Source of the DNA: a virus
Taxonomy: Duplodnaviria > Heunggongvirae > Uroviricota > Caudoviricetes
Virus record (IMG/VR): IMGVR_UViG_3300038393_001148
Reading direction: 5' to 3' (one strand)
Length of the DNA: 64,000 bases
Shown: positions 17,855 to 31,302 of the stretch, piece after piece
Layout of the letters: each line of letters opens with the position of its first letter
Position numbering within the stretch: the first letter of the stretch is position 1
Translations under genes and position numbers: made by a program
The notes under the pieces: model-generated
What the model was told of the DNA's origin: nothing
Database searches by the model: none
Seen by the model: the letters and a program-made list of their open reading frames with translations, nothing else

Positions 17855-18727
17855 ATGTCGATCACCGAAACCCCGGTGGTCTCCACGAACGGACTGATTG
17901 GGGACGCGAAGATTACGTCCCAGGTCCAGATGCCGGTCGTGGAGATCACCCCCGCCGTTGCCAAGCGTCTGCTTCAGGGCAACATTAACAACCGCAACCT
18001 GCGCAAGCGCAAGATCGAGACGTACGCGACTGCGATGAAGGCAGGTCAGTGGCGTCCCACGCGCGAGCCCATCGAGTTCGCCGAGGATGGCACCCTACTG
18101 AACGGCCAGCACCGTCTGCACGCCGTCATCGAGTCGGGTGTCACGATTCTGAATCCCGTCAAGCTCGGCGTGGATCCTCGCGAGCAGCTTGTCATGGACA
18201 CCGGCATGAGCCGGATGGCCTCCGACGTGCTCGCGATGAACGGGTACGAGGATGCAACCCAGCTTGCCGCTGCGGCCAAGATCCTCTACCTGTGGCGAAA
18301 CGCCCCCGGCATGACGATGCTCCGCGCCGGGTCCTCTCGGATCAACAACGAGATCGTGGAGGAGTTCGTGGAGCAGAACGCGAGCCTCACCGATAGCGTG
18401 AAGCTGGCGAAGGAGGCCACGAAGTCCTTCAAGCTTCTCCCGGCTTCCGTGATGGCCGCGCTGCACTACGAGATCCGAGGCAAGCACGGGCAGACCAAGG
18501 CCGACGAGTTCTTCCGCCAGTTCGCGGAGGGGTTCAACCTCCAGCCGGGATCCCCGATCCTCGCGCTCCGCAATGTCCTGCTGAAGTCCACGACGGCCTA
18601 CACCAAGCCGCCGACCGAGCTTCGCATGGCTTGGACGATCCACGCCTACAACAAGTGGCAGTCGGGCGCGACGAACGTCAAGATCATCAAGCACAGCAAG
18701 GCGATGGAGTTCCCCACCATCGACTAG
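17855..18727 (+). CDS. ParB/Srx-like N-terminal domain protein (NGQHR motif)
   Basis: ITPAVAKRLL..NINNR...GTLLNGQHRLHAVIES. Confidence 0.65.
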   Translation: MSITETPVVSTNGLIGDAKITSQVQMPVVEITPAVAKRLLQGNINNRNLRKRKIETYATAMKAGQWRPTREPIEFAEDGTLLNGQHRLHAVIESGVTILNPVKLGVDPREQLVMDTGMSRMASDVLAMNGYEDATQLAAAAKILYLWRNAPGMTMLRAGSSRINNEIVEEFVEQNASLTDSVKLAKEATKSFKLLPASVMAALHYEIRGKHGQTKADEFFRQFAEGFNLQPGSPILALRNVLLKSTTAYTKPPTELRMAWTIHAYNKWQSGATNVKIIKHSKAMEFPTID

Positions 18728-18743
18728 CCGAATATATTTCGGC

Positions 18744-18772
18744 TTGACGTTTCAGCGGGGACCTGCTATGCT
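18744..18772 (+). promoter_or_regulatory. SigA-like promoter at the head of the RNA island
   Basis: TTGACG-N17-TATGCT. Confidence 0.7.
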
Positions 18773-18977
18773 CCGTCGAGCGGAGTGGACCCCGTGCGTT
18801 GGGCGGGTCACTTATTTTGGGTGGCCCGCCTAGCATTAACCCTTAGAAAGAACTATGAGTACGACGTATAGAAATCAGCCTAAGCCGGAATGGATCGCAT
18901 CAGCGATGCACTTCGTGCTGCGCGGAGGCGATACCATCTAACCCGTCTTGTATTTCCATAGGCAAGGAAGCAAGACG

Positions 18978-19003
18978 GGACCGGCCACAAGCCGGTCCTT
19001 TTT
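18978..19003 (+). terminator. Rho-independent terminator
   Basis: GGACCGGC-CACAA-GCCGGTCC followed by TTTTT. Confidence 0.7.
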
Positions 19004-19007
19004 GTTG

Positions 19008-19081
19008 GCCCTGGTAGCTCAGTTGGATAGAGCAGCAGACTTCTAATCTGCCGGTCACTGGTTCGAGTCCAGTTCAGGGCG
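19008..19081 (+). tRNA. tRNA-Arg(TCT)
   Basis: Full cloverleaf, loop CTTCTAA. Confidence 0.92.
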
Positions 19082-19110
19082 TTGACGGGCGAATATTCTC
19101 GTGATATAGT
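19082..19110 (+). promoter_or_regulatory. SigA-like promoter
   Basis: TTGACG-N17-TATAGT. Confidence 0.75.
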
Positions 19111-19118
19111 CCGTCGAG

Positions 19119-19254
19119 ACATAGACAGTAGCCCAATGGGCCACTGGCGCAGCCGTCAATACGGCAGAAGGTGGCGTGGATCCAGGCATATATACCCTGG
19201 CTCTGCACGGCATCGAGTTGCTAAAGGGTCGCACCCGAGGCAGTGTGTCTATGT
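19119..19254 (+). ncRNA. Unclassified structured RNA A (136 nt)
   Basis: Closing stem ACATAGACA/TGTCTATGT, internal hairpins, own promoter. Confidence 0.6.
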
Positions 19255-19262
19255 AAGTCTTA

Positions 19263-19344
19263 GGCGGGATAGCGAAGCGGTCAAACGCAGCGGACTGTAA
19301 ATCCGTCCTCTCCGAGTTCGAAGGTTCGAATCCTTCTCCCGCCA
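19263..19344 (+). tRNA. tRNA-Tyr(GTA)
   Basis: Cloverleaf with long variable arm, loop CTGTAAA. Confidence 0.92.
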
Positions 19345-19348
19345 CTTT

Positions 19349-19608
19349 AAGCGAAGTCATACGGCGTGCCCCAAAGATGTTATTAGACGTGGCCCTATAC
19401 GGGCGAAGGACTGGGTGACTACCTTCACATTGAGTAAGGATACCCACGACCGAAAGGTAAGCGCTCTCGTCCCTGGCTCTCAACCAGGAGATTATCGGGA
19501 GTATTCAGTGGTGAAATTGGTATACACGCCAGCCCTATAAGCTGGTGCCTACGGGCGTACGGGTTCGAATCCCGTCTGAATGCAGCTAACGAACGTATGA
19601 CTTCGCTT
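19349..19608 (+). ncRNA. 260-nt structured RNA enclosing a tRNA-Leu-like body with a TAT anticodon (19501-19584)
   Basis: Perfect 15-bp closing stem AAGCGAAGTCATACG/CGTATGACTTCGCTT; embedded cloverleaf with loop CCTATAA. Confidence 0.65.
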
Positions 19609-19661
19609 TATCTTGCAAGAGGCTGGGAGCTTGCCTAGCGTGTTCACGGAAAAGCTCCAAT

Positions 19662-19747
19662 GCGGTTGTGGCGGAATGGTAGACGCGCTTGGTTGAGGGC
19701 CAAGTGGGATTTATAGTCCCGTGGAAGTTCGAATCTTCTCAACCGCA
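19662..19747 (+). tRNA. tRNA-Leu(GAG)
   Basis: Cloverleaf, long V arm, loop TTGAGGG. Confidence 0.92.
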
Positions 19748-19759
19748 CTTATAGTCTTA

Positions 19760-19834
19760 GGAAGTGGCGTGAACGCACGGGGAAGTAAGGGCGAGCAGTG
19801 GGCTCGTACCTGCTTTTACACAAAGAACGCTTCC
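19760..19834 (+). ncRNA. Small structured RNA candidate
   Basis: Ends GGAAG..GCGT/ACGCTTCC pair; nested hairpin GCGAGC/GCTCGT. Confidence 0.35.
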
Positions 19835-19839
19835 GCTCT

Positions 19840-19921
19840 GCGCCCTTGGTGGAATTGGCAGACACGTCAGGTTTAGGTCCTGATGCCGCGAGGTGTGAAG
19901 GTTCGAGTCCTTCAGGGCGTA
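19840..19921 (+). tRNA. tRNA-Leu(TAG)
   Basis: Cloverleaf, loop TTTAGGT. Confidence 0.92.
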
Positions 19922-19923
19922 CT

Positions 19924-20099
19924 AGGTCAAGGACGGTTAAATTCCGCCCAGCAGCATGCGCTGGGATAAGAAGTGACTACCTTAGTTCTCTACTGACAAC
20001 GTTTGCTACGTCTAGGAATATGCGTTAGGGCCAGAGGGTTAGGCAAGCCCGCCCGTTAACGTGAGAGCAGAGAAACAGAGCTTCCCATATACTTGACCT
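19924..20099 (+). ncRNA. Unclassified structured RNA C (176 nt)
   Basis: Closing stem AGGTCAAG/CTTGACCT begins 2 nt after tRNA-Leu; hairpin CCCAGC/GCTGGG. Confidence 0.5.
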
Positions 20100-20106
20100 T
20101 ACTCTT

Positions 20107-20225
20107 GTCGTCCTGCCCAATACATGGGCCGGTGTGAAGCGCGACCGATGTAGTGGACCTGCGCGTAGGTATACATGCGCGCATAACAATTCTTACTAGG
20201 TCAAACAGGGCGTGGCAGTGACGAC
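20107..20225 (+). ncRNA. Unclassified structured RNA D (119 nt)
   Basis: Closing stem GTCGTC-CTGCC/GGCAG-T-GACGAC; internal GCCC/GGGC and GCGCG hairpins. Confidence 0.45.
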
Positions 20226-20472
20226 TGTTGGAGGCAACTCTACGGATAAGGGTGTCCCGTTGTTTAGCGATGATATCTGACCGGACCGGGCCACATTGGC
20301 ATATATAACCAATGTGGCATCTTCTGCTGATTAGAATTCAGCCGGGAAAGTTGAACTAGAGCCTAACTCCGATACATATCCCCCGAGGGTGCAGTTGCGC
20401 GGTATCCCTTTCGGCCCACCTCTTCTGTGGAACCCCCGTGCCACATAAAACAAAGACCGGGAAAGATTTATT

Positions 20473-20548
20473 GGGCGAATGGTGTTAATGGCTAACATGG
20501 GAGTCTCCAAAACTCTTGCTCTAGGTTCGAATCCTAGTTCGCCCGCCA
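20473..20548 (+). tRNA. tRNA-Trp(CCA)
   Basis: Cloverleaf, loop CTCCAAA; the only tRNA here with an encoded 3' CCA. Confidence 0.92.
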
Positions 20549-20622
20549 CGGGGAGTGGCGCAGTCTGGTAGCGCGCTTGCTTTGGGAGCAAGATGTCGCA
20601 GGTTCGAATCCTGTCTCCCCGA
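20549..20622 (+). tRNA. tRNA-Pro(TGG)
   Basis: Cloverleaf, loop TTTGGGA. Confidence 0.93.
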
Positions 20623-20624
20623 CT

Positions 20625-21008
20625 ATGAGTAACGTAATCAAGTACAAGGGAAATGATCGAGTTAAGGTCATAGTCGATATCGACCGATATCAGCTAGACG
20701 GAACGCTAGATAGCGTAGTCGGCTATCTTGCGGGTCTAGGCGTAGGCCTTGAGGATCCTACCCTCGATCTCTCTGTACACGAGGGACCCTACTACGATCC
20801 TATCGTAGTTGAGTTTACGCTGACGGGTTATCGTGAGCCAACTGAGGAAGAACTTACGGCTCACGAGAAGAAGAAGGTTCGTGACGCCGAAGCAGCCAAG
20901 AAGCGAGCAGAGAAGGAGAAGGCGGAACGTGTTGTAAAGCGTCAGAAGGACGCTGAGAAGGCACTCAAACTCGCCAGGAAGGAATTTCCGGAGCTATTCA
21001 AGGAATAG
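20625..21008 (+). CDS. Hypothetical protein with a basic coiled-coil tail
   Basis: ATG 2 nt after tRNA-Pro; no SD. Confidence 0.7.
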   Translation: MSNVIKYKGNDRVKVIVDIDRYQLDGTLDSVVGYLAGLGVGLEDPTLDLSVHEGPYYDPIVVEFTLTGYREPTEEELTAHEKKKVRDAEAAKKRAEKEKAERVVKRQKDAEKALKLARKEFPELFKE

Positions 21009-21017
21009 CTCCATTTA

Positions 21018-21090
<73 letters not shown>

Positions 21091-21116
21091 CTTGACGTGT
21101 GCGCCTGTAAGTCAAT

Positions 21117-21240
21117 ACATACAGGCATTGTCTAAACGTTACTGTTGGGCGGGAACCCAACAGAGCGGTCCCAAGGATGTAATTCCCTTGGAAGCGTGTT
21201 ACGTGACAAGAGGCGCACCTTGGAGGCGGTGCCTGTATGT
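21117..21240 (+). ncRNA. Unclassified structured RNA E (124 nt), related to RNA A
   Basis: 11-bp closing stem ACATACAGGCA/TGCCTGTATGT; hairpins CTGTTGGG/CCCAACAG and CCAAGG/CCTTGG. Confidence 0.6.
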
Positions 21241-21251
21241 CTCGTTCCCGA

Positions 21252-21323
21252 GCCCGGATAGCTGAGTGGTGTTAGCACCTGCCTTACAAGCAGGAGACGT
21301 AGGTTCGATTCCTACTCTGGGCA
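21252..21323 (+). tRNA. tRNA-Val(TAC)
   Basis: Cloverleaf, loop CTTACAA. Confidence 0.9.
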
Positions 21324-21324
21324 T

Positions 21325-21516
21325 ATGGCAAAGAAAAAGCAGGGATACGGAACCAAGTGCGATAAGTGCGAGGCCAAGCTCGGCGATGTCGAGATGAAGC
21401 GGGGCAAGCCGGTGCTGATTGATGGGAAACCGGTCAAGATCCCGATCTTCTCGTATGCCCGCGAAATCGGCGGAAAGTGCGAGACTCGCTGCCTCAAGCA
21501 CTTGACATCCAAGTGA
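21325..21516 (+). CDS. Small basic Cys-rich protein
   Basis: ATG 1 nt after tRNA-Val; CDKC...CETRC. Confidence 0.65.
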   Translation: MAKKKQGYGTKCDKCEAKLGDVEMKRGKPVLIDGKPVKIPIFSYAREIGGKCETRCLKHLTSK

Positions 21517-21535
21517 GCCTTGCTAGGCTACGCAT

Positions 21536-21757
21536 ATGAGTCATCCCGTGTTCATCTCTATCGGCCCCAAGAAGGTTGATACGGAGATCATCAAGAAGGC
21601 GATTAGCCTGAAGGAGAAGGATCTAGGTCGCCATCTCACTTCGACCGAGATTCTTCAGACGATGGGCGAGGTCTACGAGCCGGATGCGTCAAAGCGCACC
21701 TTCATCTCCTCCCGACCGCCCTCAAAGATGCCCAAGCTACACCTGCCGAGGTCTTAG
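21536..21757 (+). CDS. Hypothetical protein
   Basis: 73 aa ORF. Confidence 0.55.
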   Translation: MSHPVFISIGPKKVDTEIIKKAISLKEKDLGRHLTSTEILQTMGEVYEPDASKRTFISSRPPSKMPKLHLPRS

Positions 21758-22007
21758 TATGTGGAAAACTGTTTGGAATGTCATTTCGCTGCTCGCGTTC
21801 GCGCTGAGGTGGTGCGCGGACACGCTGGGCGAGGCCCAGTACTGGGCCTGGGAAAAGGCGGGCAGCCCTGGTGCCCAGGAATCATAACTCACTCTTCCGG
21901 ACCTACATGAGCCATCAGAAACGGGAGGATCTGTACACGTACTACAGATCATGGGGTCATAGTCGCCTCTTCTCCTGGTGGATGTCTCGCAGGTACGGAC
22001 AAGATTA

Positions 22008-22080
22008 GGGCCACTAACTCAGTTGGTAGAGTATTCGCTCGACACGCGAAAAGTCACTGGTTCGAGTCCAGTGTGGCCCA
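22008..22080 (+). tRNA. tRNA-Val(GAC), atypical C33
   Basis: Cloverleaf, loop TCGACAC. Confidence 0.8.
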
Positions 22081-22083
22081 CTA

Positions 22084-22186
22084 GGGAAGTCTATCTACAA
22101 CCGGTTGAACATATTCCTCCACTGGAAATAGTTACCGTGGTACGCCGCGAGGCGGTCAGACTGGAATCTGGCAGGTAGAACTTCCC
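22084..22186 (+). ncRNA. Structured RNA candidate (103 nt)
   Basis: Closing stem GGGAAGT/ACTTCCC, 3 nt after tRNA-Val. Confidence 0.45.
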
Positions 22187-22195
22187 AACCTTGTC

Positions 22196-22380
22196 ACAAT
22201 CACCATAACAAGCCCCAAAGGCGAGATGCATACTTTGTAAGGCCACATTGTGAGAGGCTAATGCAGACAAAGTATGCATCTCTGATCTTTGTACGGTCAA
22301 CATTAGTTGCGACGCTTCTTTGGAGCAAAGTTGTGTGTGGTGAGTACGCATAAGCGGTCAGGCGGGAACCTGGCGATTGT
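22196..22380 (+). ncRNA. Structured RNA candidate (185 nt)
   Basis: Closing stem ACAATCACCA/TGGCGATTGT (9 of 10 pairs); internal perfect 16-bp helix 22223-22238/22267-22282. Confidence 0.5.
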
Positions 22381-22387
22381 AGTACAT

Positions 22388-22935
22388 GGGGAGGACAGGC
22401 ATCGATTCGGTTCGACAACCTATCCACCTAGTTGTAGCGGTATGAGCACACCTACAGGCTCAAAGCCATAACTGGCGCTGATACTCATCAGTTCGCTCTC
22501 GCTGCCTAACCGGTAGCGAAAAAGCCGGGCCGCTGGAAGCCTGGGAACAGAACACCAGCGAGGTTAGAATCCTCCTGTGATCCGCAGAAGATCTAAGGTC
22601 CTCGACGCTGCCGCACTGGCGGCAGCGTAGGTGACTGAGCGCTCATAACGCTCGATTCGAATGGATAGCGACCAAGGTTTGGTGCCGACGCCTACTTTTA
22701 CCGGAGGGCCATCCTTGCAAGCAGAATTCTTCCGGTGTAGCCGGGAGTGGGTTGCTGAGACCTTAGGTAAATAGAATTCAGACAGTGCTAAGCGGACTCG
22801 CGATGTAAAGGCCCTTCCAGAAGGGAACGACCACCTCTCCGGCACGCACAGATAGCGAATTAGCACAGCAGTACAAGCTACTAGAAGACTAGAGATAGTG
22901 AACTGAAGACGAGGGTTCGAATCCCTCCCTCTCCA
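22388..22935 (+). ncRNA. ssrA: tmRNA, 548 nt, with an inserted domain
   Basis: Acceptor GGGGAGG/CCTCTCC-A with G3.U70, TPsiC arm, pk1, tag frame 22474-22509 (GADTHQFALAA*) after ATAACT. Confidence 0.93.
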
Positions 22936-22937
22936 CT

Positions 22938-23043
22938 TGGGATAGATGACACCGACTCCACGGTAGATAAGGGAGCACGGCTCTATGGCCGGTCAGGCAT
23001 TAGGTGATGCCGCACCTTTCGCAAACCCCGCCTCACTATCCCA
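22938..23043 (+). ncRNA. Structured RNA candidate (106 nt)
   Basis: Closing stem TGGGATAG/CTATCCCA, 2 nt after tmRNA. Confidence 0.5.
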
Positions 23044-23051
23044 TTCACTTG

Positions 23052-23267
23052 GAAGGACGGCCTGCGACACATTCTGTGGTTGAATTCCACAAGCGAAGTG
23101 TCGATACCCAGACCCGGCTTGAAAACCGGGAGCAAAGGCGGAAGACCCAGTGACAGAGCACCAGGCCTGCAACCTGGAGGTCGCCGGTTAGAGTCCGGCC
23201 GAGGGCTGGCCCTCGTAGCTCAGTGGTCCGTGACTAGCTGACTTTTATGCCCGACGAACGTCCTTCA
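23052..23267 (+). ncRNA. Structured RNA containing a circularly permuted tRNA-like domain
   Basis: Closing stem GAAGGACG/CGTCCTTC; order is D-3' strand, anticodon arm, T arm, acceptor hairpin, D-5' strand. Confidence 0.65.
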
Positions 23268-23283
23268 AATTTTGCCGCAGGAT

Positions 23284-23358
23284 GCCCGAATAGCTTCAAC
23301 TGGATAGAGCGCTTCCCTCGTAAGGAAGAGGTTATGGGTTCGAGTCCCATTTCGGGCT
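23284..23358 (+). tRNA. tRNA-Thr(CGT)
   Basis: Cloverleaf, loop CTCGTAA. Confidence 0.9.
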
Positions 23359-23373
23359 TACGCCCTACTGCTG

Positions 23374-23446
23374 GGCCCCATAGCTCAACGGTCAGAGCGC
23401 TTGTCTTATACGCAAGTGGTTCTAGGTTCGAATCCTAGTGGGGCTA
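23374..23446 (+). tRNA. tRNA-Ile(TAT)
   Basis: Cloverleaf, loop CTTATAC, acceptor GGCCCCA resembling Ile2. Confidence 0.85.
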
Positions 23447-23453
23447 CCTACTT

Positions 23454-23526
23454 GCCCTTATAGTGAAGATGGATATCACGAGTCCCTCCTAAGGACTAGT
23501 CACGGGTTCGAGTCCTGTTGAGGGCG
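23454..23526 (+). tRNA. tRNA-Arg(CCT)
   Basis: Cloverleaf, loop CTCCTAA. Confidence 0.9.
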
Positions 23527-23534
23527 CTAAATCT

Positions 23535-23902
23535 TAACGCAGCACGAATGGAAGCTAAGTTCCTCTTAGCAGGTGCAGGACTGCGAAGCATCGGACCTTG
23601 GAATCGATGTGGAGTCACTGTTTCTCAAAGTCTGGTTAGAATCCGGCTGCTTTGAAGGGAAGGTGAGTAGGCTCAAATACTCTCACTTTCCCGAAGGTGA
23701 TCTGTGACCATTAAAAGGTGAGCGGAATCCCAGATCGCATGCAATCTGTCCGCAAAGGAGTAGGGAGAGGTGAATAAAGGCGCTAGTAGGGTCGGTTTAC
23801 CGACTGCCGAACGGTCTTTACGACCCTGTAGTACTCGACCGAAACCCGGAATCCGAGCTAGGGAATTTGCTACTCCCTTGACTGACTCGGCGCGCTGCGT
23901 TA
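23535..23902 (+). ncRNA. Large unclassified structured RNA (368 nt)
   Basis: Closing stem TAACGCAGC/GCTGCGTTA; several long helices; T-loop-like hairpin; no convincing ORF. Confidence 0.6.
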
Positions 23903-23912
23903 CTCTTGCAAT

Positions 23913-24341
23913 ATGCTGCTACGACGCATTCATCGCAATGCGCTCTCGTGGGTCAACGAAGAGCGGGCCTTGGCTGGACTGGACCCGATAGGCGACTTCC
24001 CAACGGGATTTCGCGGGGGTGATGCCAACCCCATCACGAACGCCTTGGGATCTCATGAGCGCGAGGTCGCCCCGAAGTTAGACGAGGCCATAAAGGAAGC
24101 GGAGGCGGACCCGCTCGGAGCGGCGTTAGAGGCTGCGGTTATTCCTAGCCCCATGTCGGCCTTCTTTTGGTTTGCGCTCTTTACGGTTGGGTTCTATCCC
24201 AAGTACGACCAGGCCAAGATGTATGAGAGGCTTCCGCCAAAGCGCCGTGCCCTTGTAGCAAGGAGGCTGCGGAACCTACCAAGCGATGCGCGAGAGCGGT
24301 ATTACCGCGTAGAGCAAGTGGTAAAAATGCTGAAGGAATAA
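23913..24341 (+). CDS. Hypothetical protein
   Basis: 142 aa ORF ending at the 5' end of tRNA-Ser. Confidence 0.65.
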   Translation: MLLRRIHRNALSWVNEERALAGLDPIGDFPTGFRGGDANPITNALGSHEREVAPKLDEAIKEAEADPLGAALEAAVIPSPMSAFFWFALFTVGFYPKYDQAKMYERLPPKRRALVARRLRNLPSDARERYYRVEQVVKMLKE

Positions 24342-24427
24342 GGAGAGGTGCCTGAGTGGTCGAAAGGGCTCGCCTGCTAAGCGAGTGTAGTTAATACCTA
24401 CCAGGGGTTCGAATCCCCTTCTCTCCG
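24342..24427 (+). tRNA. tRNA-Ser(GCT)
   Basis: Cloverleaf, long V arm, loop CTGCTAA. Confidence 0.92.
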
Positions 24428-24428
24428 C

Positions 24429-24457
24429 TTGACACCTGAAACGAAGTACGATAGGCT
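24429..24457 (+). promoter_or_regulatory. SigA-like promoter, near-leaderless
   Basis: TTGACA-N17-TAGGCT, ATG 6 nt later. Confidence 0.7.
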
Positions 24458-24463
24458 GAAGAT

Positions 24464-24925
24464 ATGAAGCTCGGAGAAGCACTAACATTACGAAGCGACC
24501 TAGTGTCGCGCTTGGGTGAGGTACGCAACCGTATCTCTTCCAACGTCCTGGTCCAGGACCAGGAGCGGCCAGCGGAGGACCCGAACGCCCTCATCGAGGA
24601 GCACGGAAACCTCTGCGATGAGCTTGAGAGCTTGGTCACCAAGATCAACCTCACCAACTCCCAGACGCGCCTTCCCTCCGGGGAGACGCTGACGGAGGCC
24701 CTCGTCAAGCGAGACGTGTTCGCCCAGCGTCTCAACGGCCTGCGGCAGGCGGCGCAAGCTGCCGATGTCACCCACGCCCGTCGCTACTCCCTCTCGGAGA
24801 TCAAGATGGTTCCGACCATCAAGGTTGCCGATCTCAATGAGGAGATCGATGGCTTGGCGAAGCAGCGCCGTCAGCTTGACACGGCGATCCAGGCCCATAA
24901 CTGGACCACGGATCTAGTAGAGTAA
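24464..24925 (+). CDS. DIP1984 family protein
   Basis: MKLGEALTLRSDL...VQDQERPAEDP...TLTEALVKRD...RYSLSEIK...IQAHNWTTDL matches the family pattern as I recall it. Confidence 0.8.
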   Translation: MKLGEALTLRSDLVSRLGEVRNRISSNVLVQDQERPAEDPNALIEEHGNLCDELESLVTKINLTNSQTRLPSGETLTEALVKRDVFAQRLNGLRQAAQAADVTHARRYSLSEIKMVPTIKVADLNEEIDGLAKQRRQLDTAIQAHNWTTDLVE

Positions 24926-25158
24926 GTTAGTTGGTAGTCGTAAAGTAGCGAATGTCAGGGCTGACTATGCGCCTTAAGCTAGTCCCATCGGAGACCCGAA
25001 ATCTCGCCTCCCCGCTGCGCGAAGGGAATAAGTTACCGTTCCGCGCCAACCGGGTACAGATGATCGTCACCGTTCATAAGTTACTACCAGACATTGAACT
25101 TTGCGATGAGGGATGGCATTACCCTGTAGGTAATGCCGGGTTCGGGGACTTAACTTAC
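24922..25158 (+). ncRNA. Structured RNA overlapping the DIP1984 stop codon (237 nt)
   Basis: Closing stem GTAAGTTA/TAACTTAC; TGGTAGT/ACTACCA; AATGTC/GACATT; 9-bp hairpin GGCATTACC/GGTAATGCC. Confidence 0.55.
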
Positions 25159-25163
25159 AACGA

Positions 25164-25237
25164 CGCGGGATAGTGGAAGCATGGCGCCACGCTAGCCTCA
25201 TAAGCTAGAGATCTGGGTTCGAATCCCGGTCCCGCTA
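25164..25237 (+). tRNA. tRNA-Met(CAT), initiator-like acceptor
   Basis: Cloverleaf, loop CTCATAA, C1:U72 mismatch, no 3GC anticodon stem. Confidence 0.85.
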
Positions 25238-25238
25238 C

Positions 25239-25311
25239 GCCTTCTTAACTCAATTGGCAGAGTAACTGACTCTTAATCAGGAGGTTCTGGGTTCGAGTCC
25301 CAGAGAAGGCA
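25239..25311 (+). tRNA. tRNA-Lys(CTT)
   Basis: Cloverleaf, loop CTCTTAA. Confidence 0.9.
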
Positions 25312-25313
25312 CT

Positions 25314-25485
25314 TAGACGGTACGAAAGAGTTGCCCGTTACAAAACGGCTGGAAACAACGGGACATCCAACCTCAGAGCGGTTAGAATCCGCCATTCTAG
25401 GGCTTAGCGGCCCTACGTGCCTTAGCGGGCATAAGAATAAGGGAAATCGAGAGGTGCGAGCCGAAACACCCTCGCGCACCGTCTA
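25314..25485 (+). ncRNA. Structured RNA candidate (172 nt)
   Basis: Closing stem TAGACGGT/ACCGTCTA, 2 nt after tRNA-Lys; GCGG-TTAGAAT-CCGC and TAGGGC/GCCCTA hairpins. Confidence 0.55.
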
Positions 25486-25549
25486 TCTATAATAACTTCG
25501 GAGCCGAGATCGAAGCGGCCAACTCTGACCCGGAGTCTAAATGGGTAAT

Positions 25550-25623
25550 GGGTGATTAGCTCAGTTGGTGAGAGCGCTCGTCTGATAAGCGAGAGGTCCC
25601 TGGTTCAAGTCCAGGATTGCCCA
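25550..25623 (+). tRNA. tRNA-Ile(GAT)
   Basis: Cloverleaf, loop CTGATAA. Confidence 0.93.
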
Positions 25624-25625
25624 CT

Positions 25626-25720
25626 AGAGGACCGGTCGATGGATAAGTTCGAACTATTCCATCCCTCAGACACAAGCGGCCATGCTGTTGTCTGCGTATG
25701 AACTGGCGACCGCATCCTCT
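25626..25720 (+). ncRNA. Structured RNA candidate (95 nt)
   Basis: AGAGGA-CGGTCG/CGACCG-TCCTCT closing helix, 2 nt after tRNA-Ile; two internal hairpins. Confidence 0.5.
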
Positions 25721-25728
25721 TAATCTAC

Positions 25729-25901
25729 TGATCCCATGGGTCAGCCTGTTCTCGCCAGGGAAATTGCCTACAACTGTGTGGCGATATGTTTGTAGGAAGC
25801 CGCCCTCCCACGCCAGGGGCCAGAATAGCGGCAGCGAGAAACTTAACTCACCAAGCCCAACCTCTATTGGTAAGAATAGAGTAGTATCCCTTACCGGATC
25901 A
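25729..25901 (+). ncRNA. Structured RNA candidate (173 nt)
   Basis: TGATCC/GGATCA ends; TTCTCGC/GCGAGAA internal helix. Confidence 0.4.
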
Positions 25902-25966
25902 ATGCGAAAATCCTCCATGTTGGCATGGTCGCGGGAGCAAGGATTGGAATCCGAGGCTCCCACCAA

Positions 25967-26038
25967 TGGTGGGTGCTCGATAGGCAAGAGAACGGACTGT
26001 TAATCCGCTGCATGTGGGTTCGAATCCCACCCCACCAG
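25967..26038 (+). tRNA. tRNA-Asn(GTT)
   Basis: Cloverleaf with short D stem, loop CTGTTAA. Confidence 0.8.
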
Positions 26039-26046
26039 CTAATGGT

Positions 26047-26124
26047 TTCACAGTTGTCAGCACAGGTTGACTCCCTGTCAGGAGAAATTTGGCCCTCCGT
26101 CTGACTCAAAGACCTGACTGTGAA
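26047..26124 (+). ncRNA. Small structured RNA candidate (78 nt)
   Basis: TTCACAGT/ACTGTGAA closing stem. Confidence 0.35.
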
Positions 26125-26194
26125 CTTATCTCATAGATATTCGGTAATCTGACAAGGAGGTAGTGGTTAAGTTCGAACTGTAGCGAAGTAACTT

Positions 26195-26266
26195 GGCGGG
26201 GTGGCGGAATGGCTTACGCACGGGTCTGCAAAACCTGTTATACGGGTTCGATTCCCGTCCTCGCCT
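26195..26266 (+). tRNA. tRNA-Cys(GCA)
   Basis: Cloverleaf, loop CTGCAAA, U73. Confidence 0.9.
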
Positions 26267-26268
26267 CT

Positions 26269-26460
26269 ATGCAGTTGCTTACTATCGAAGAATTTCATGC
26301 ACTACCCGAAGGTACCGAGCTAATCTCAATTCTTGATGAGGTCAAGATCAAGGGCAGGGATTATATCGATCTTGACACCCGCGCCGGGTTGATAGCTTGG
26401 TATGTTCGAAAGCTACCTGAGCCTACGCTTGCGGACAGTGAATGGATCGATAATAGTTGA
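26269..26460 (+). CDS. Hypothetical protein (63 aa)
   Basis: ATG 2 nt after tRNA-Cys. Confidence 0.6.
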   Translation: MQLLTIEEFHALPEGTELISILDEVKIKGRDYIDLDTRAGLIAWYVRKLPEPTLADSEWIDNS

Positions 26461-26463
26461 CTT

Positions 26464-26550
26464 GGAGGGTTGGCAGAGTCCGGTTTAATGCAACGGTCTT
26501 GAAAACCGTCAGGTGTCACAGCCTCCTGGGTTCGAATCCCAGACCCTCCG
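26464..26550 (+). tRNA. tRNA-Ser(TGA)
   Basis: Cloverleaf, long V arm, loop CTTGAAA. Confidence 0.92.
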
Positions 26551-26553
26551 CTT

Positions 26554-26674
26554 GGGGCGAATGGTAAGGTAGCCCGTCAATTCGTGGCGTCCGGTGTCGT
26601 TCGAGCCGACGTTAAACATATGGATGCAAATAGGGTAGTTCCCGCCTACTTGGGTTCGAATCCCAAGCGCCCCA
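26554..26674 (+). ncRNA. tRNA-like RNA with an expanded anticodon arm (121 nt)
   Basis: GGGGCG/CGCCCC-A acceptor, TTGGG-TTCGAAT-CCCAA T arm, GCGTCC/GGATGC stem with a 29-nt loop. Confidence 0.55.
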
Positions 26675-26707
26675 TCTGCGGAGTCAAGGTTCCGTACCTT
26701 AATATGT

Positions 26708-27253
26708 ATGAACCTCCGCTGGGCCGCTTTCCTTGATGCGCTAGAAATTATCGTTCGGTACAGTTCGGTTCTCCTTGCTGTAGGATTATTGACCTGGGCC
26801 GTTTCTTCTATCACGGTTAACAAGAAGACACAAGAGATAAATCGCATTGTTCGCACTATCCAGGAAGCCAAGCGTGGACCTCGGGGTGAACGTGGTCCGT
26901 CTGGACCTCAAGGATTGCGAGGCCGCGAAGGTGCGGTTGGACCGAGAGGCGTTCAGGGTCGGACGGGCGCTAGCGGCCCTAGAGGACAGAGGGGTCCACA
27001 GGGCGCACAGGGCCAGCGAGGTGCCGAAGGGCTTCGGGGACCCCAGGGTGTACAGGGCGCTACAGGAAAAACTGGAGCAACTGGTCCCGAAGGCCCTCGC
27101 GGTGAGCGAGGCCCAACTGGCGCTCAAGGAGCTACGGGGCTACGCGGCCCTCAAGGAATCCCTGGAGTCCAGGGCCCGTTGGGACCTGAAGGGCCGATTG
27201 GCCCACGAGGACCAATCGGTTCGGTCACTTGTCAGGTTTTACAAAGCTGCTGA
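26708..27253 (+). CDS. Membrane-anchored collagen-like protein
   Basis: N-terminal TM helix followed by about 38 Gly-X-Y triplets. Confidence 0.85.
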   Translation: MNLRWAAFLDALEIIVRYSSVLLAVGLLTWAVSSITVNKKTQEINRIVRTIQEAKRGPRGERGPSGPQGLRGREGAVGPRGVQGRTGASGPRGQRGPQGAQGQRGAEGLRGPQGVQGATGKTGATGPEGPRGERGPTGAQGATGLRGPQGIPGVQGPLGPEGPIGPRGPIGSVTCQVLQSC

Positions 27254-27303
27254 AGGCGGTGTAGTAAAGCTGGAGTTAAGTGGATGGATTATCCAACGCT
27301 GAG

Positions 27304-27376
27304 GGCAACTTAGCTCAGTTGGTAGAGCGGCAGACTGAAAATTTGCGCGTCACTGGTTCGAGTCCAGTAGTTGCCA
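27304..27376 (+). tRNA. tRNA-Phe(GAA)
   Basis: Cloverleaf, loop CTGAAAA. Confidence 0.92.
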
Positions 27377-27389
27377 TCGACTTACACAT

Positions 27390-27462
27390 GCCGGGTTGGT
27401 CTAGCGGTTAGGACGCCTGTCTTTCACACAGGAAATCACGGGTTCGAACCCCGTACCCGGTA
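27390..27462 (+). tRNA. tRNA-Glu(TTC)
   Basis: Cloverleaf, loop CTTTCAC. Confidence 0.92.
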
Positions 27463-27564
27463 CTTACTCCCAACAGTGAAAGTCGCCTTGCCCGGCTTGT
27501 CCTAGGAAAGCTCCGGGCGAACAAGAAGTAGCAAAGCCCTGATTGTGGGCAGTTTCCGATCTAC

Positions 27565-27649
27565 GCCGAAGTGACGGAACCGGTAGACGTAGCGGACTCA
27601 AAATCCGCCGCCCCATAAAGGCGTGAGGGTTCGAGTCCCTCCTTCGGCA
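27565..27649 (+). tRNA. tRNA-Leu(CAA)
   Basis: Cloverleaf, loop CTCAAAA. Confidence 0.92.
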
Positions 27650-27664
27650 TTGAGTAGAACCCAC

Positions 27665-27736
27665 TGCGGAGTGGTGTAATTGGCAACACATGGGTTTCTG
27701 GTACCTAGATTCGGGGTTCAAGTCCCTGCTCCGCAT
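27665..27736 (+). tRNA. tRNA-Gln(CTG)
   Basis: Cloverleaf, loop TTCTGGT. Confidence 0.88.
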
Positions 27737-27745
27737 TATTGATTT

Positions 27746-27829
27746 GGCGGCGTGCTGGAATTGGAGATACAGGGCAAGCTTAAACCTTGCTGCCTTCGGG
27801 GATTGTGGGTTCGAGTCCCACCGCCGCTA
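27746..27829 (+). tRNA. tRNA-Leu(TAA)
   Basis: Cloverleaf, loop CTTAAAC. Confidence 0.9.
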
Positions 27830-27891
27830 CTGTGAGATACGGGGTGAGCCCGCCTGCGCGATGAGCGTAAAGAGGAGGAAGATATTGTGTG

Positions 27892-27964
27892 GGTCCGGTA
27901 GCTCAGGGGAAGAGCGCCAGCCGTTATAAGCTGGAAGTCGTTGGTTCGAATCCAACCTGGATCA
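27892..27964 (+). tRNA. tRNA with an 8-nt anticodon loop (CGTTATAA; Ile(TAT)-like)
   Basis: Acceptor GGTCCGG/CTGGATC, D arm, CCAGC/GCTGG stem, canonical T arm. Confidence 0.7.
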
Positions 27965-28022
27965 CGGTCTACTCGACCTTAAGGAGTGGCACATCATCCG
28001 AATCCCATGAACGTATCTTGTC

Positions 28023-28051
28023 TTGACTGTCCGTAGATGGACTGGTATCAT
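28023..28051 (+). promoter_or_regulatory. SigA-like promoter
   Basis: TTGACT-N17-TATCAT, ATG 6 nt later. Confidence 0.7.
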
Positions 28052-28057
28052 GGATCT

Positions 28058-28207
28058 ATGACTCAATATTACGTAGGAGCGGTTATCGGGGCCATCCTAG
28101 CCGTCATCGGTTACCTCGGCCCCGAGGATGGAGGGACGCTAGAGCTTATTGGCCTTGCGATTCTCGCTGTTGCCCTCTATAAGCTTTTCGACCTGAACTG
28201 GTTCTGA
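28058..28207 (+). CDS. Small two-TM membrane protein (49 aa)
   Basis: Manual translation MTQYYVGAVIGAILAVIGYLGPEDGGTLELIGLAILAVALYKLFDLNWF. Confidence 0.65.
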   Translation: MTQYYVGAVIGAILAVIGYLGPEDGGTLELIGLAILAVALYKLFDLNWF

Positions 28208-28208
28208 G

Positions 28209-28601
28209 ATGGCCTTCAAGTTCTGCAACACAGAAACCCTGATCCGGCTCAATAACGAGTGCATCGATAATCCTCACTGCAATCGAGCTATTGATGAGAA
28301 GGCCTATGAGTTGCTTGACCCTGAGGGCACGCACCTTTTTGACTCGTCGCACATCGTCTTCCGGATGGCCGGTCATGGATTCGTCCGCCCGATGGTCAGC
28401 ATGAAGATGAAGGACACTATGGAGCCGGTGCAGGTCACCATGGATCTCTCCGATGAACAGTGGAATTCCCTTCGTACGTTCACGAAGGAGATGGACGATA
28501 TGTTGAAGTCGGGCAAGGAATGTGTGGACTGTGGATACGTCCGCCCGCACCAACCCGGCGACTACATTTGTCTGATCTGTAGGACCAGCGGTAAGAAGTA
28601 A
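28209..28601 (+). CDS. Protein with C-terminal DYxC Zn-ribbon tag (member 1)
   Basis: CVDC-x9-DYICLICR. Confidence 0.75.
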   Translation: MAFKFCNTETLIRLNNECIDNPHCNRAIDEKAYELLDPEGTHLFDSSHIVFRMAGHGFVRPMVSMKMKDTMEPVQVTMDLSDEQWNSLRTFTKEMDDMLKSGKECVDCGYVRPHQPGDYICLICRTSGKK

Positions 28602-28606
28602 ATAGT

Positions 28607-28680
28607 GTGGGGATAGCATAATTGGTTAATGCCCTTGGTTGTGGACCAAGACAATGTGGGTTCGAGTCCCACTCCTCACC
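28607..28680 (+). tRNA. tRNA-His(GTG)
   Basis: Cloverleaf, loop TTGTGGA, C73; T rather than G at -1. Confidence 0.9.
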
Positions 28681-28686
28681 CCTCAA

Positions 28687-28759
28687 GCCTCCGTAACTCA
28701 ATTGGCAGAGTGGCTGACTTTTAATCAGAACGTTGCAGGTTCGAGTCCTGCCGGGGGCA
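28687..28759 (+). tRNA. tRNA-Lys(TTT)
   Basis: Cloverleaf, loop CTTTTAA. Confidence 0.92.
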
Positions 28760-28761
28760 CT

Positions 28762-29109
28762 ATGTTCCAGGTTGGTGATGTACTCAAATATGCCAAATCT
28801 GAACTTGACCCTCCGATGATTTGCCAGCACGGAGAATACGTTGGCACAGTGCTGGCTATCGAGGAGGGTGGCCGGATGCGTGTTATGTGGCACTGGGATC
28901 CCGTAGAATATTGTCGCATCCATGGTTCCTCGATCTCTCGGATCCAAGAAACTTGGAAAGGGCAGTCGGGGGTTAGGGGTTATTGTGCCTCGGTTTCGGC
29001 CTTCTTTTATTTCTCCAATGATTGCGCAGTATGCGGCAGGACGATTGGGCACGTTTTGGATTACATCTGTAGTGAATGTCGTAACATGGCCGATTCGTCC
29101 AGTGGTTAG
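28762..29109 (+). CDS. Zn-ribbon tag protein (member 2)
   Basis: ATG 2 nt after tRNA-Lys; CAVC-x8-DYICSECR; stop codon lies inside tRNA-Glu. Confidence 0.7.
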   Translation: MFQVGDVLKYAKSELDPPMICQHGEYVGTVLAIEEGGRMRVMWHWDPVEYCRIHGSSISRIQETWKGQSGVRGYCASVSAFFYFSNDCAVCGRTIGHVLDYICSECRNMADSSSG

Positions 29110-29159
29110 GACGCCAGCCTCTCACGTTGGAAACACGGGTTCGAATCCCGTATCGGCTA
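29088..29159 (+). tRNA. tRNA-Glu(CTC)
   Basis: Cloverleaf, loop CTCTCAC. Confidence 0.92.
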
Positions 29160-29197
29160 CTCTTGATCCATTCTCCCGCGTTTGGTAGTATCTTCTC

Positions 29198-29533
29198 ATG
29201 AGAGTCCGCGCTGTATACACCCTCAAGTCCTTTGCCGAACTAAAGGATGCTCTTGAGTACGCCAAGAGCATCAAGGCGGGAGCGGGAAGCCATGCGGACG
29301 CTGAGCTAGAGATTGAGTTCGATAAGAAATCAAAGAAGCTCGGATCCCTCGGCGGCAAAGGACTCACAGCGATCTTGCCCACCTCACCTCCAGAGGAAGA
29401 GGAGTCAGCGCTTCCCTGGAAGGTGGTCGTGGTCAACGAGGATCCGGTGCCCGGAGGAAGTCCCTGCGCCGAGTGTGACCAGCCCCATTTCGAGGAAGAC
29501 TTCCTCTGCTCTGATTGTCGAGCCGCCGCATGA
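29198..29533 (+). CDS. Zn-ribbon tag protein (member 3)
   Basis: CAEC-x7-DFLCSDCR. Confidence 0.75.
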   Translation: MRVRAVYTLKSFAELKDALEYAKSIKAGAGSHADAELEIEFDKKSKKLGSLGGKGLTAILPTSPPEEEESALPWKVVVVNEDPVPGGSPCAECDQPHFEEDFLCSDCRAAA

Positions 29534-29820
29534 TCTTCTACAAGACCCGTACGGTGCAAAAGGGTAAAGAGCTTCACGACATCGAAGCTGTGAAGAAACG
29601 TTTGAAGGAAATTCACGACCATCCTAAGTCGGCTTATCACAAGGCGCTCAAGGAAAATCGTATTATGGTGTGCTACGACCAGAATCGCGCCACGCGGGGC
29701 AAATATGACATCATCGAATTCACCGAGGTCGAGCCTCCGGGCTCCTCGGTTTGCGGAGGTTGTCAGAAGAGGTTCTTTAGCCTAGAAGAAGACTATCTAT
29801 GTCCGAAGTGCCGCTCCTGA
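29530..29820 (+). CDS. Zn-ribbon tag protein (member 4)
   Basis: CGGC-x9-DYLCPKCR; ATGA overlap with member 3. Confidence 0.75.
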   Translation: MIFYKTRTVQKGKELHDIEAVKKRLKEIHDHPKSAYHKALKENRIMVCYDQNRATRGKYDIIEFTEVEPPGSSVCGGCQKRFFSLEEDYLCPKCRS

Positions 29821-30071
29821 ATCCAGAACTCCTGCGCCCCGGATTGGTTATGAAGGATTCTCGATGGACTGATTGGTACACCGTTGCCGAAGTCCATGGG
29901 CGCGAATTCATCTTTGATGGCTATCCCAATGCAGTGTATGATTTCTTTAGTCCGATAAGCGGTGGTACTTGGGTTATTCCTAACGCTAGTTGGTGTGCAT
30001 CTTGCGAAGAACCCGCACTAATAAATGACTACCTATGCCATCATTGTAGAAAGGAGGAGAATAATGGCTAG
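29799..30071 (+). CDS. Zn-ribbon tag protein (member 5)
   Basis: CASC-x7-DYLCHHCR. Confidence 0.7.
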   Translation: MSEVPLLNPELLRPGLVMKDSRWTDWYTVAEVHGREFIFDGYPNAVYDFFSPISGGTWVIPNASWCASCEEPALINDYLCHHCRKEENNG

Positions 30072-30711
30072 CCGCGCCCGTAGCGTCTCAATTAACGACC
30101 AGACTTTGTGGTTCGACATGAAGCTGGCTCATCTCAAGGCCACCGACAAGCAGATAGAGCTTTTGGCGACTATCGAAGATCTTGAGATGGATGATCTGCT
30201 AGAGTCGAACGTGACGCAGGGCGACGTGCTCAAGCGCCTCCGCGAGGCATTAGGCCAGGCTCCAATCCCTCCAGATGTTCTGCTCAAGAGGCAGAAGTGG
30301 AGACGGGAACGTCAGACGCAGCCGCCCTGCCGTCTCTGCCACAAGATTGGCGACAGTACACGTCACCACTTCGTGAATAAGTGGATTCTGAAGGAATTGT
30401 CAGGATACGGGCGCGAGTGGTCTAACAGACAAGAGAACTGTATTCCACTGTGTATTGATTGCCACCGGGATCTGCACGATAGAAGCGGCCCGTCGAAATC
30501 AATTGCGCATGTCCTCACGGCGCGCGAGAAGGATTTCGCCAATCGCGCTATCGAACGGCTCTCGGAAGAGCGTCCTAAGCTTCTTATCCTCATTGCCAAG
30601 GGTTCCGATACGGTATATGAGGCTCGACTGATCAAAGACTGGTTCGAAGGTCTGTTCGAGGTGGAAGCTGCTGAACTCGCTGAGGATGAGCCTCTCGCGG
30701 CGGTTGCGTAA
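30064..30711 (+). CDS. HNH-like endonuclease domain protein
   Basis: CRLC...RHH...NCIPLCIDCHRDLH. Confidence 0.7.
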   Translation: MASRARSVSINDQTLWFDMKLAHLKATDKQIELLATIEDLEMDDLLESNVTQGDVLKRLREALGQAPIPPDVLLKRQKWRRERQTQPPCRLCHKIGDSTRHHFVNKWILKELSGYGREWSNRQENCIPLCIDCHRDLHDRSGPSKSIAHVLTAREKDFANRAIERLSEERPKLLILIAKGSDTVYEARLIKDWFEGLFEVEAAELAEDEPLAAVA

Positions 30712-30725
30712 AGGCCGCCACACTT

Positions 30726-30798
30726 GCGCCTGTAGCTCAGTGGATAGAGCGCATCCCTGCGGAGGATGAGGTCACTGGTTCAAATCCAGTCAGGCGCG
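30726..30798 (+). tRNA. tRNA-Arg(GCG)
   Basis: Cloverleaf, loop CTGCGGA. Confidence 0.88.
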
Positions 30799-30800
30799 CT

Positions 30801-31103: not shown

Positions 31104-31107
31104 ACTC

Positions 31108-31302
31108 ATGGCTCCTAAGAAGAAAGCGGCCTTCGTGCCGCAAGAAAAAGATGATGGCACTCGTTGGCGCGTCATGCGCTACACTGAGAAGGGTGTCACT
31201 GAGGTCTACCCGGCACGGTCGGGCCTCATGAAGCGCGAGGCTCAGCGACTAGCCGAAGGATTGGCGCTAGGGGGAGCCTTCATCGAGCAGGTCGAAGAAT
31301 AA
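31108..31302 (+). CDS. Hypothetical protein
   Basis: 64 aa ORF. Confidence 0.6.
   Translation: MAPKKKAAFVPQEKDDGTRWRVMRYTEKGVTEVYPARSGLMKREAQRLAEGLALGGAFIEQVEE

Follow-up and report, generated by a model that had tools for sequence, protein, structure and literature searches.

Stem-closed structured RNAs between the tRNA genes of a soil actinophage

Arrays of transfer RNA (tRNA) genes in phages tend to be interpreted as cargo for codon usage or anti-defence, with no attention paid to the DNA between the genes. The question of what this DNA may encode is raised by IMG/VR virus record IMGVR_UViG_3300038393_001148 (Caudoviricetes), of which a stretch of 64,000 nucleotides (nt), hereafter the window, was analysed. 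Between the tRNA genes at 19119-26124, a sequence-only reading had described 16 intervals closed by terminal stems and filled with hairpins (units A to O and E2; Table 1), and had proposed that they form an uncharacterised repertoire of phage non-coding RNAs. The gaps do hold structured non-coding elements, and several of these are conserved RNA genes with compensatory changes. The term uncharacterised has to be narrowed, as unit I falls by its layout into the known YrlA class (PMC4201824), and unit B probably does so too. For 10 of the 16 units no homologue was detected. Comparison with related phages indicates that some of the set, at the least, is a genuine RNA toolkit and not spacer; selection for structure appears to act on six units or more. 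In the reading favoured here, at a probability of roughly 60%, the units would be cut out by tRNA-processing enzymes and protected by their terminal helices, and several would act as partners of a Ro60-type protein or as tRNA decoys.

Terminal helices and folding strength

In each of the 16 intervals the fold pairs the first 6-17 nt with the last, which confirms the terminal stems described earlier. Examples are a perfect helix of 15 base pairs (bp) at 19349/19608, one of 17 bp with G-U pairs at 21117/21240, and helices of 9 bp at 19119/19254 and 23535/23902. In a blind junction scan, the 5′ arm had to start no more than 12 nt after the end of a tRNA, transfer-messenger RNA (tmRNA) or coding sequence or after a predicted transcription start, the position of the 3′ arm within the gap was free, and 500 dinucleotide shuffles served as the control in each test. 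The scan returned exactly the previously described helix at 11 of 12 junctions. Taken one by one, only two helices stand out clearly from the shuffles, those of B (15 bp) and E (17 bp; p 0.002 for both), while the set as a whole is significant (Fisher p 1e-5); in the comparison with shuffled sequence that had been named as a possible refutation, the terminal helices beat the control as a set and few do so singly. Furthermore, in the five gaps that hold a single unit, a helix closing the whole gap reaches p 0.0005-0.05 in each case (Fisher 5e-7).

Folding energies point the same way. Minimum free energy z-scores average -2.78 for the 16 units and -0.12 for 30 length-matched coding segments of the same window (Mann-Whitney p 1.4e-7). 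The units tile the gaps, with linkers of mostly 0-11 nt to the adjoining tRNA or unit, and stem-closed non-coding RNA makes up 2.6 kilobases (kb) of 7 kb, over a third of the stretch. The plus strand is favoured because the stems carry G-U pairs and all tRNAs face that way.

The Rfam search that had been suggested as a further check returned tRNAs only at gathering scores, and no unit as such reaches a gathering score, in agreement with the earlier failure to place any unit in a known family; unit B contains a tRNA call, at 19501-19584. At E values up to 1, the tmRNA, a weak YrlA match and an RNase P-like RNA are added. Identity of the units with the large phage RNAs GOLLD or ROOL was rejected: a search of 18500-37000 gave no Rfam match to either family, whether gathering scores were applied or E values up to 1 were admitted.

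Units conserved among related phages

Six units (A, B, D, E2, I and J) have counterparts in related phages, either homologues or analogues, that show compensatory base changes. The relatives used in this comparison share 57-70% protein identity with the phage, and the families compared hold just 2-7 sequences, with the homologues of A and B recognised by eye. Loci of relatives are referred to below by L numbers.

Unit J is present in five phages including this one, always between tRNA-Arg(cct) and tRNA-Ser(gct), and its motifs AGUGAGGCUCRAAUACUC and CCGAAACCCGRAAU are invariant. In the RNAalifold consensus, 62 pairs are predicted and 37 of them carry compensatory changes, whereas column-shuffled alignments average 10.5 such pairs and never exceed 27; the consensus energy is low (alifold z -5.6), and both the terminal stem and the T-loop hairpin covary. 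No Rfam family matched beyond noise even when E values up to 10 were admitted, so that this conserved RNA belongs to no known family; it is large enough for a ribozyme or a scaffold. Like GOLLD and ROOL, unit J is a large, multi-helix, conserved RNA between phage tRNA genes, but those RNAs are at least twice as long, and J is distinguished by a T-loop hairpin and motifs of its own. A candidate identity as RNase P RNA, prompted by the motifs AAGUCNGG and CCGAAACCCG, was rejected. RNase P RNA was to be recognised by the P4 helix motifs GAGGAAAGUCCGG and ACAGAANCCGGCUUA together with a match to RF00010; unit J gives no RF00010 match, and its AAGUCUGG sits in the covarying T-loop hairpin, not in an RNase P P4 helix.

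Unit I leads to the Y RNAs. The hallmark of these RNAs is a terminal stem joining the 5′ and 3′ ends beside a CGAA bulge (PMC12135203; PMC4201824), and the Y RNA-like (YrlA) class, which has been reported in mycobacteriophages, additionally holds a tRNA-like domain (PMC4201824). By its layout, unit I is a YrlA-type Y RNA-like tRNA mimic. It has CGAA just 5′ of the 3′ strand and carries the T arm, the closed acceptor-like hairpin and the start of the D arm that define the YrlA module (GCCGGUUAGAGUCCGGC, CGAGGGCUGGCCCUCG and UAGCUCAGUGG). The Rfam YrlA model gives a weak match at 23151-23270 (23.9 bits) in which this module is aligned. Relatives of unit I were found by iterative nhmmer in L014, L015 and L044, and the module is kept in 7 RNAs of 5 phages. 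All members of the family begin with GGACGG and end with CCCAUGAACGUCC, their terminal stem and T arm covary, and the alifold z is -8.9. A covariance model built from six relatives with the window left out (model R1) finds unit I at 23052-23265 (44.1 bits, E 2e-6), with the ends that had been read before, and a second copy in the window at 27834-28018 (47.9 bits, E 4e-7). The model did not pick up units B, C, D, J and L in the window.

A Ro60-binding motif, GNCGAAN0-1G in a bulge adjoining the terminal stem, was also looked for, and GACGAACG in unit I and AACGAACG in unit B stand directly before the 3′ strand, on the strand opposite to that of the Rfam consensus. Unit B folds with z -4.0 (helix p 0.002). 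Its cloverleaf at 19501-19584 has the anticodon UAU and a long variable arm; ARAGORN calls it Ile(tat) with 84 nt, and Rfam scores 19502-19583 as tRNA at 48.5 bits, with a cut-off of 29. An analogue in L014 (2689-2842) has an ACGG...ACGAACGU clamp as in B, again around an odd tRNA-like element. A loose scan for GAAC followed by a 7-bp stem gave mostly chance matches, of which only those adjacent to tRNAs were used. Unit B and the RNA at 27832-28021 probably belong to the YrlA class too.

The comparison with YrlA RNAs and their Ro60/Rsr partners (RF02553) holds in several respects. A terminal stem is present, with a CGAA-type motif beside it that may correspond to the YrlA bulge, unit I holds the T arm, closed acceptor hairpin and D arm, and the RNAs are set among phage tRNA genes, with a Ro60 gene in the L017 array. 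In contrast to RF02553, these RNAs have an extra outer stem (GGACG/CGUCC), with (C/U)GAA ahead of its 3′ strand. A complete cloverleaf is enclosed in B and in 27832-28021, and a single phage carries several RNAs of this kind where one or two would be usual. A further clamp, UGAGACGG...CUGACGAACCGUCUCG, may exist at 34964-35274 on the plus strand, where it would span a T-loop hairpin at 35011 and tRNA-Gly(tcc) at 35042-35113; this could be chance.

Units J and L have in common ACGAA after the 5′ strand, a T-loop hairpin (GGUUAGAAUCC in L) and CCGAAAC, as read directly from the motifs. Unit L otherwise shows only a weak similarity to T-loop RNAs of L013 and L014, which was not significant in nhmmer. 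Both J and L are possibly Y-like, and this is to be taken as a lead only. A T-loop hairpin of the GGUUAGAAUCC type, followed by an intrinsic terminator, also occurs downstream of the array end in L013 (reverse complement, ~17210) and L015 (~10848).

Units A, D and E2 are, together with J, separate families without tRNA parts, apart from the T-loop hairpin of J. Unit A occupies the promoter-proximal position. The sigma-70-type promoter in front of it is the top promoter match of the stretch (10/12), its predicted start falls at base 1 of the unit, and a TTGAC[AG] box lies at the same place upstream of the homologues in L013, L014, L017, L022 and L025. The unit is built from helices P1 (ACAUAGACA/UGUCUAUGU) and P2 (CACUG/CAGUG) and the hairpins CAGCCGU..ACGGC and GGGUCGCACCC. 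Six relatives, two of them nearly identical, carry a homologue between tRNA-Arg(tct) and tRNA-Tyr. The relatives keep the CAGCCGU..ACGGC hairpin and a GGGUCGCRCCC hairpin, and their P1 and P2 strands are unrelated in sequence yet still complementary; these helices were read by hand, as MAFFT failed to align the termini.

Unit D has one homologue, in L013, at another array position between tRNA-Thr(cgt) and tRNA-Ile(tat). Between the two, compensatory changes affect 19 of the 44 predicted pairs, and at the terminus both partners are exchanged in 6 of 8 pairs. Unit E2 has syntenic homologues in L013 and L014 (Leu(tag)-Trp gap), in which the terminal helix is kept with 2 compensatory pairs. Units J, A, D and E2 are candidates for new Rfam families.

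Table 1. Structured RNAs and related features of the tRNA array (positions in the window; helix and stem p values of the junction scan from dinucleotide shuffles)
Feature	Positions	Strand	Size (nt)	Description
Promoter, sigma-70-type	19082-19110	+		TTGACG, 17 nt, TATAGT, with TG; predicted start ~19117-19119
Unit A	19119-19254	+	~135	Promoter-proximal; gap-closing helix p 0.01
Unit B	19349-19608	+		15-bp clamp (..CAUACG-G / ..ACGAA-CGUAUG..) around hairpins and a tRNA-like cloverleaf
Unit C	19760-19834	+	75	7-bp terminal stem, GAA 5′ of 3′ strand (AAAGAACGCUUCC); z -2.6 (reverse strand -0.35); gap-closing p 0.05
Unit D	19924-20099	+	176	Begins 1 nt past tRNA-Leu(tag)
Unit E2	20107-20225	+	119	12-bp terminal helix, then CAAUACAUG
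Unit E	21117-21240	+	124	17-bp terminal helix, 25 nt past tRNA-Thr, behind a TTGACG box
Unit F	22084-22186	+	103	Begins 2 nt past tRNA-Val(gac); z -3.4; 7-bp stem p 0.33
Unit G	22196-22380	+	185	Perfect 16-bp internal hairpin (inverted repeat I4); z -3.8; ends 7 nt before tmRNA
tmRNA	22388-22937	+	~550	Large insert; in the same tiling, not among the 16 intervals
Unit H	22938-23043	+	106	Adjoins tmRNA 3′ end; z -2.2; 8-bp stem p 0.21
Unit I	23052-23267	+		YrlA-type Y RNA-like tRNA mimic (by layout); terminal stem GAAGGACG/CGUCCUUC
Unit J	23535-23902	+	~370	Terminal stem, ACGAA after 5′ strand, T-loop hairpin (CUGGUUAGAAUCCGG)
Unit K	24922-25158	+	237	Begins on stop codon of DUF6847 gene, ends 5 nt before tRNA-Met; gap-closing helix p 0.017; z -1.7
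Unit L	25314-25485	+	172	Begins 1 nt past tRNA-Lys; z -2.3
Unit M	25626-25720	+	95	Begins 1 nt past tRNA-Ile(gat); z -2.9; outer 6-bp stem p 0.52
Unit N	25729-25901	+	173	6-bp stem; weakest fold, z -1.1
Unit O	26047-26124	+	78	Begins 7 nt past tRNA-Asn; 10-bp helix with G-U, p 0.04; z -1.6
Y-like RNA	27832-28021	+		Clamp GUGAGAUACGG...CCCAUGAACGUAUCUUGU around odd tRNA at 27892-27965 with four-base anticodon call 'ttat'
RNase P-like RNA	32766-33261	+	~500	In tRNA array

Proposed processing, function and competing explanations

Transcription of the island would start from a few sigma-70-type promoters, one of them beginning exactly at unit A. In tRNA precursors that lack an encoded CCA, RNase Z cuts after the discriminator base, and RNase P cuts the 5′ ends of tRNAs. 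Most tRNAs of this array are without an encoded CCA and have trailers starting with T, and the units or open reading frames (ORFs) start 1-3 nt further on. The 5′ end of a unit would be set by an RNase Z-type cut after the discriminator of the upstream, mostly CCA-less tRNA and its 3′ side by the RNase P cut at the next tRNA, leaving short overhangs. The terminal helix would then block 3′ exonucleases, so that the unit could accumulate as a stable small RNA. The tRNA cluster of phage T4 likewise contains small non-tRNA RNAs, and its species 1 and 2 (rnaC/rnaD) are co-transcribed with the tRNAs and released by the tRNA-processing machinery. T4 has two such RNAs compared with about 16 of several families here, and a relation in sequence is not expected. 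The ATG of several ORFs also lies 1-2 nt past a tRNA (Pro, Val(tac), Cys, Lys(ttt), Arg(gcg) and Thr(tgt)); because these ORFs begin so close to tRNAs, tRNA processing may create leaderless mRNAs.

With regard to function, B, I, 27832-28021 and possibly J, L and M appear to share a terminal stem beside a CGAA or UGAA bulge, and by analogy they could bind a Ro60-type ring protein. This partner would perhaps be supplied by the host here, and it is encoded by the phage in L017, where a Ro60 (TROVE) gene lies at 8347-9771 inside the array. A Ro60/Rsr gene within ~4 kb of a YrlA RNA is found in L017, not in the 64-kb window. By analogy with Rsr-YrlA-PNPase and with Thermus phage phiLo, which has the Y RNAs Yrl1 and Yrl2 (PMC12135203), such complexes might redirect or blunt host RNA decay; alternatively, the CGAA and UGAA units could be decoys for tRNA-binding enzymes. 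Unit A may have a promoter-proximal role, and the ten orphan units would be lineage-specific members of the same kind or mere spacers. The function of Y-like RNAs in bacteria and phages is unsettled, and since this clade provides variants with and without a phage Ro60 gene, dependence on Ro60 becomes testable. In L017, two units directly upstream of the Ro60 gene (8042-8346) show a stem followed by CAGUGA (GGUCAG-CAGUGAAG and CCGGAG-CAGUGAUG).

Several observations weigh against this reading. No TROVE domain or similarity to Ro60 was found in the 64-kb window, and none of the best 120 Ro60 relatives lies on a contig as long as that of this phage. Unit I, at 23.9 bits, stays below the YrlA gathering score of 69 bits, its CGAA stands by the 3′ strand where Rfam YrlA has it by the 5′ strand, and the usual reading among relatives is AUGAACG, with UGAA in place of CGAA. 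Stems other than those of B and E mostly reach p 0.04-0.33 (one p 0.52), and by energy alone the reverse strand folds about equally well. A lone stem of 6-7 bp is within chance and proves nothing; the overall pattern is real. For ten units (C, E, F, G, H, K, L, M, N and O) nhmmer detected no homologue in the relatives, and a function of these orphans is backed by folding statistics alone. Moreover, the processing route is inferred from the gene layout alone. As for the YrlA score, no hit of at least 69 bits was found in eight related arrays, and the relative L014b reaches 41.3 bits (E 3e-8). In Mycobacterium phage Breeniome, the annotated Ro gene is immediately preceded by an RNA of the same architecture, which is taken as the published phage YrlA type; because this RNA reaches just 36 bits, the gathering cut-off seems too strict for phage members.

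The best-surviving competitor holds that most units are structured spacers, comparable to the stalks of rRNA operons, which insulate tRNA folding or guide RNase III, E or P and have no function in trans. Weak constraint on sequence would fit the 10 of 16 units that are without a homologue despite a conserved tRNA order, most of the 6-8 bp stems are individually non-significant, and RNase III would find suitable substrates in the 15-17 bp duplexes of B and E. A spacer would not, however, need the internal motifs and several helices beyond a terminal stalk that six units keep across phages, nor would it explain why the structure of D is kept at a different place in the L013 array or why many tRNA pairs of the array adjoin at 0-15 nt with no spacer between them. 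As an account of most of the set this explanation is unlikely, and for the ten orphan units a pure-spacer reading is plausible.

If the units were decaying tRNA genes and array cargo that fold well through tRNA descent, T-loop hairpins and parts resembling tRNAs could be expected, as seen in B, I, J and L, and so could the strong variation of array content between relatives. Compensatory changes in the non-tRNA helices of J, A and D argue instead for selection on structure, unit I shares with six other RNAs an ordered, conserved arrangement of permuted T arm, closed acceptor hairpin and D arm, and a tRNA-like part is absent from most units, which makes decay improbable. Still further down stands the idea of miniature mobile elements with terminal inverted repeats that hop within and between tRNA arrays. 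Every unit does end in an inverted repeat, and D and the Y-like RNAs are at differing array positions among phages. However, the termini of A and D homologues differ completely and stay complementary, as RNA pairing but not transposase recognition would predict, and no target-site duplications, shared terminal sequence or transposase were seen in the array, so a mobile origin has very little to recommend it. Least probable of all are missed or half-called small protein-coding genes. In favour of them, genuine small ORFs do occur among the tRNA genes, several units are overlapped by ORFs of 30-100 codons, and a call of 68 amino acids (aa) covers unit K in a JGI copy. Against them, none of the ORFs over a unit encodes a peptide that is conserved in any relative, whereas the true small ORFs 21536-21757 and 23913-24341 do, and homologous units keep pairing and not reading frames. 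The decay, mobile-element and coding explanations are disfavoured because non-tRNA helices covary, divergent termini still pair, and peptides are not conserved.

Among the orphan units, E has the strongest fold of the set (z -7.6), with a helix p of 0.002 in the junction scan and 0.0005 in the gap-closing test; the promoter scan did not pick up a promoter at its TTGACG box. The 68-aa peptide called over unit K is not conserved, and a 101-aa ORF overlapping unit N likewise shows no conserved peptide.

The RNA-gene island and its relatives

The stretch with the analysed gaps is the 5′ half of a single 17-kb RNA-gene island of a soil actinophage, which holds 39 tRNAs, a tmRNA and an RNase P-like RNA. 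The 39 tRNA genes lie at 19008-36144, without exception on the plus strand. Genes for a DNA polymerase, DnaB, ribonucleotide reductase (RNR), RecA, terminase and portal surround the island. The portal shares ~40% identity with its counterparts in Gordonia phage Pupper and in the Bxz1-type phages of Mycobacterium cluster C, and soil and rhizosphere metagenome contigs of up to 165 kb share the protein set of the window. The sequencing runs listed for the stretch are DNA runs from soil and rhizosphere, with no RNA run among them. The phage is an actinophage of roughly 165 kb, distant from cluster C (Bxz1-type).

The tmRNA scores 36.2 bits in Rfam, with a gathering score of 47, and is missed by ARAGORN; the tmRNAs of relatives at the same place have 280-450 nt and 62-69 bits. 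Its insert holds a T-loop-like hairpin of its own (GAGGUUAGAAUCCUC at 22560). The RNase P-like RNA aligns from end to end with bacterial class A at 25.4 bits, below the gathering score, and its universal motifs GAGGAAAGUCCGGAC, AGAUGGAU and AACAGAAUCCGGCUUA, P4 included, are intact. It is kept in L016, L015 and L013 (blastn), and a 164-aa ORF over it (32513-33007) is probably spurious. The presence of such an RNA in the island fits a phage that invests in processing, and suggests that large actinophages bring their own RNA-processing capacity. A tentative and rather doubtful extension is that the clade carries a self-contained toolkit, made up of the RNase P-like RNA, the tmRNA, Y-like mimics that act independently of Ro60 and at least four undescribed families (A, D, E2 and J), with J as a new large structured RNA serving as ribozyme or protein scaffold. 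If so, the Y-like RNAs might be decoys for host tRNA-cleaving defence nucleases or brakes on PNPase.

Relatives with arrays were reached through the 228-aa array protein (30025-30711), which has many metagenomic relatives, through the terminase (an IMG/VR relative) and through RNR. The gene order of the tRNA array is near-identical in L013 (reverse complement), L014-L018, L022, L023, L025, L044 and others. Array content differs strongly among these relatives, their tRNA order is kept, and most of the small ORFs at 19-27 kb have no counterpart in them. Near-identical JGI copies (L002-L005), with 1-2 base differences, carry no covariation signal.

Other searches for relatives were negative. With 19000-26200 as the query, megablast and blastn against INPHARED gave tRNA matches only and no known phage otherwise. 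Relatives of an upstream 297-aa protein (55% identity; L006-L009) have no tRNA array nearby, arrays are absent from most RNR-anchored loci, and upstream of the portal gene of Gordonia phage Pupper (record 8,000-36,000) there is one tRNA gene and no array. A pattern scan of IMG/VR with the motifs of unit A gave 15 false matches in GC-rich contigs and one true match that was already known, and a search for hidden homologues by 8-mer seed chaining yielded noise only.

Two minor observations concern individual genes. In L013 (reverse complement), a suppressor-type tRNA with the anticodon UUA, which reads UAA, lies at 4744-4814 between tRNA-Val(gac) and the tmRNA. The terminase ORF of the window (42205-45036, plus strand) has 943 codons and may hold an insertion such as an intein, which is suspected because the matches of relatives cover only ~2060 nt of it.

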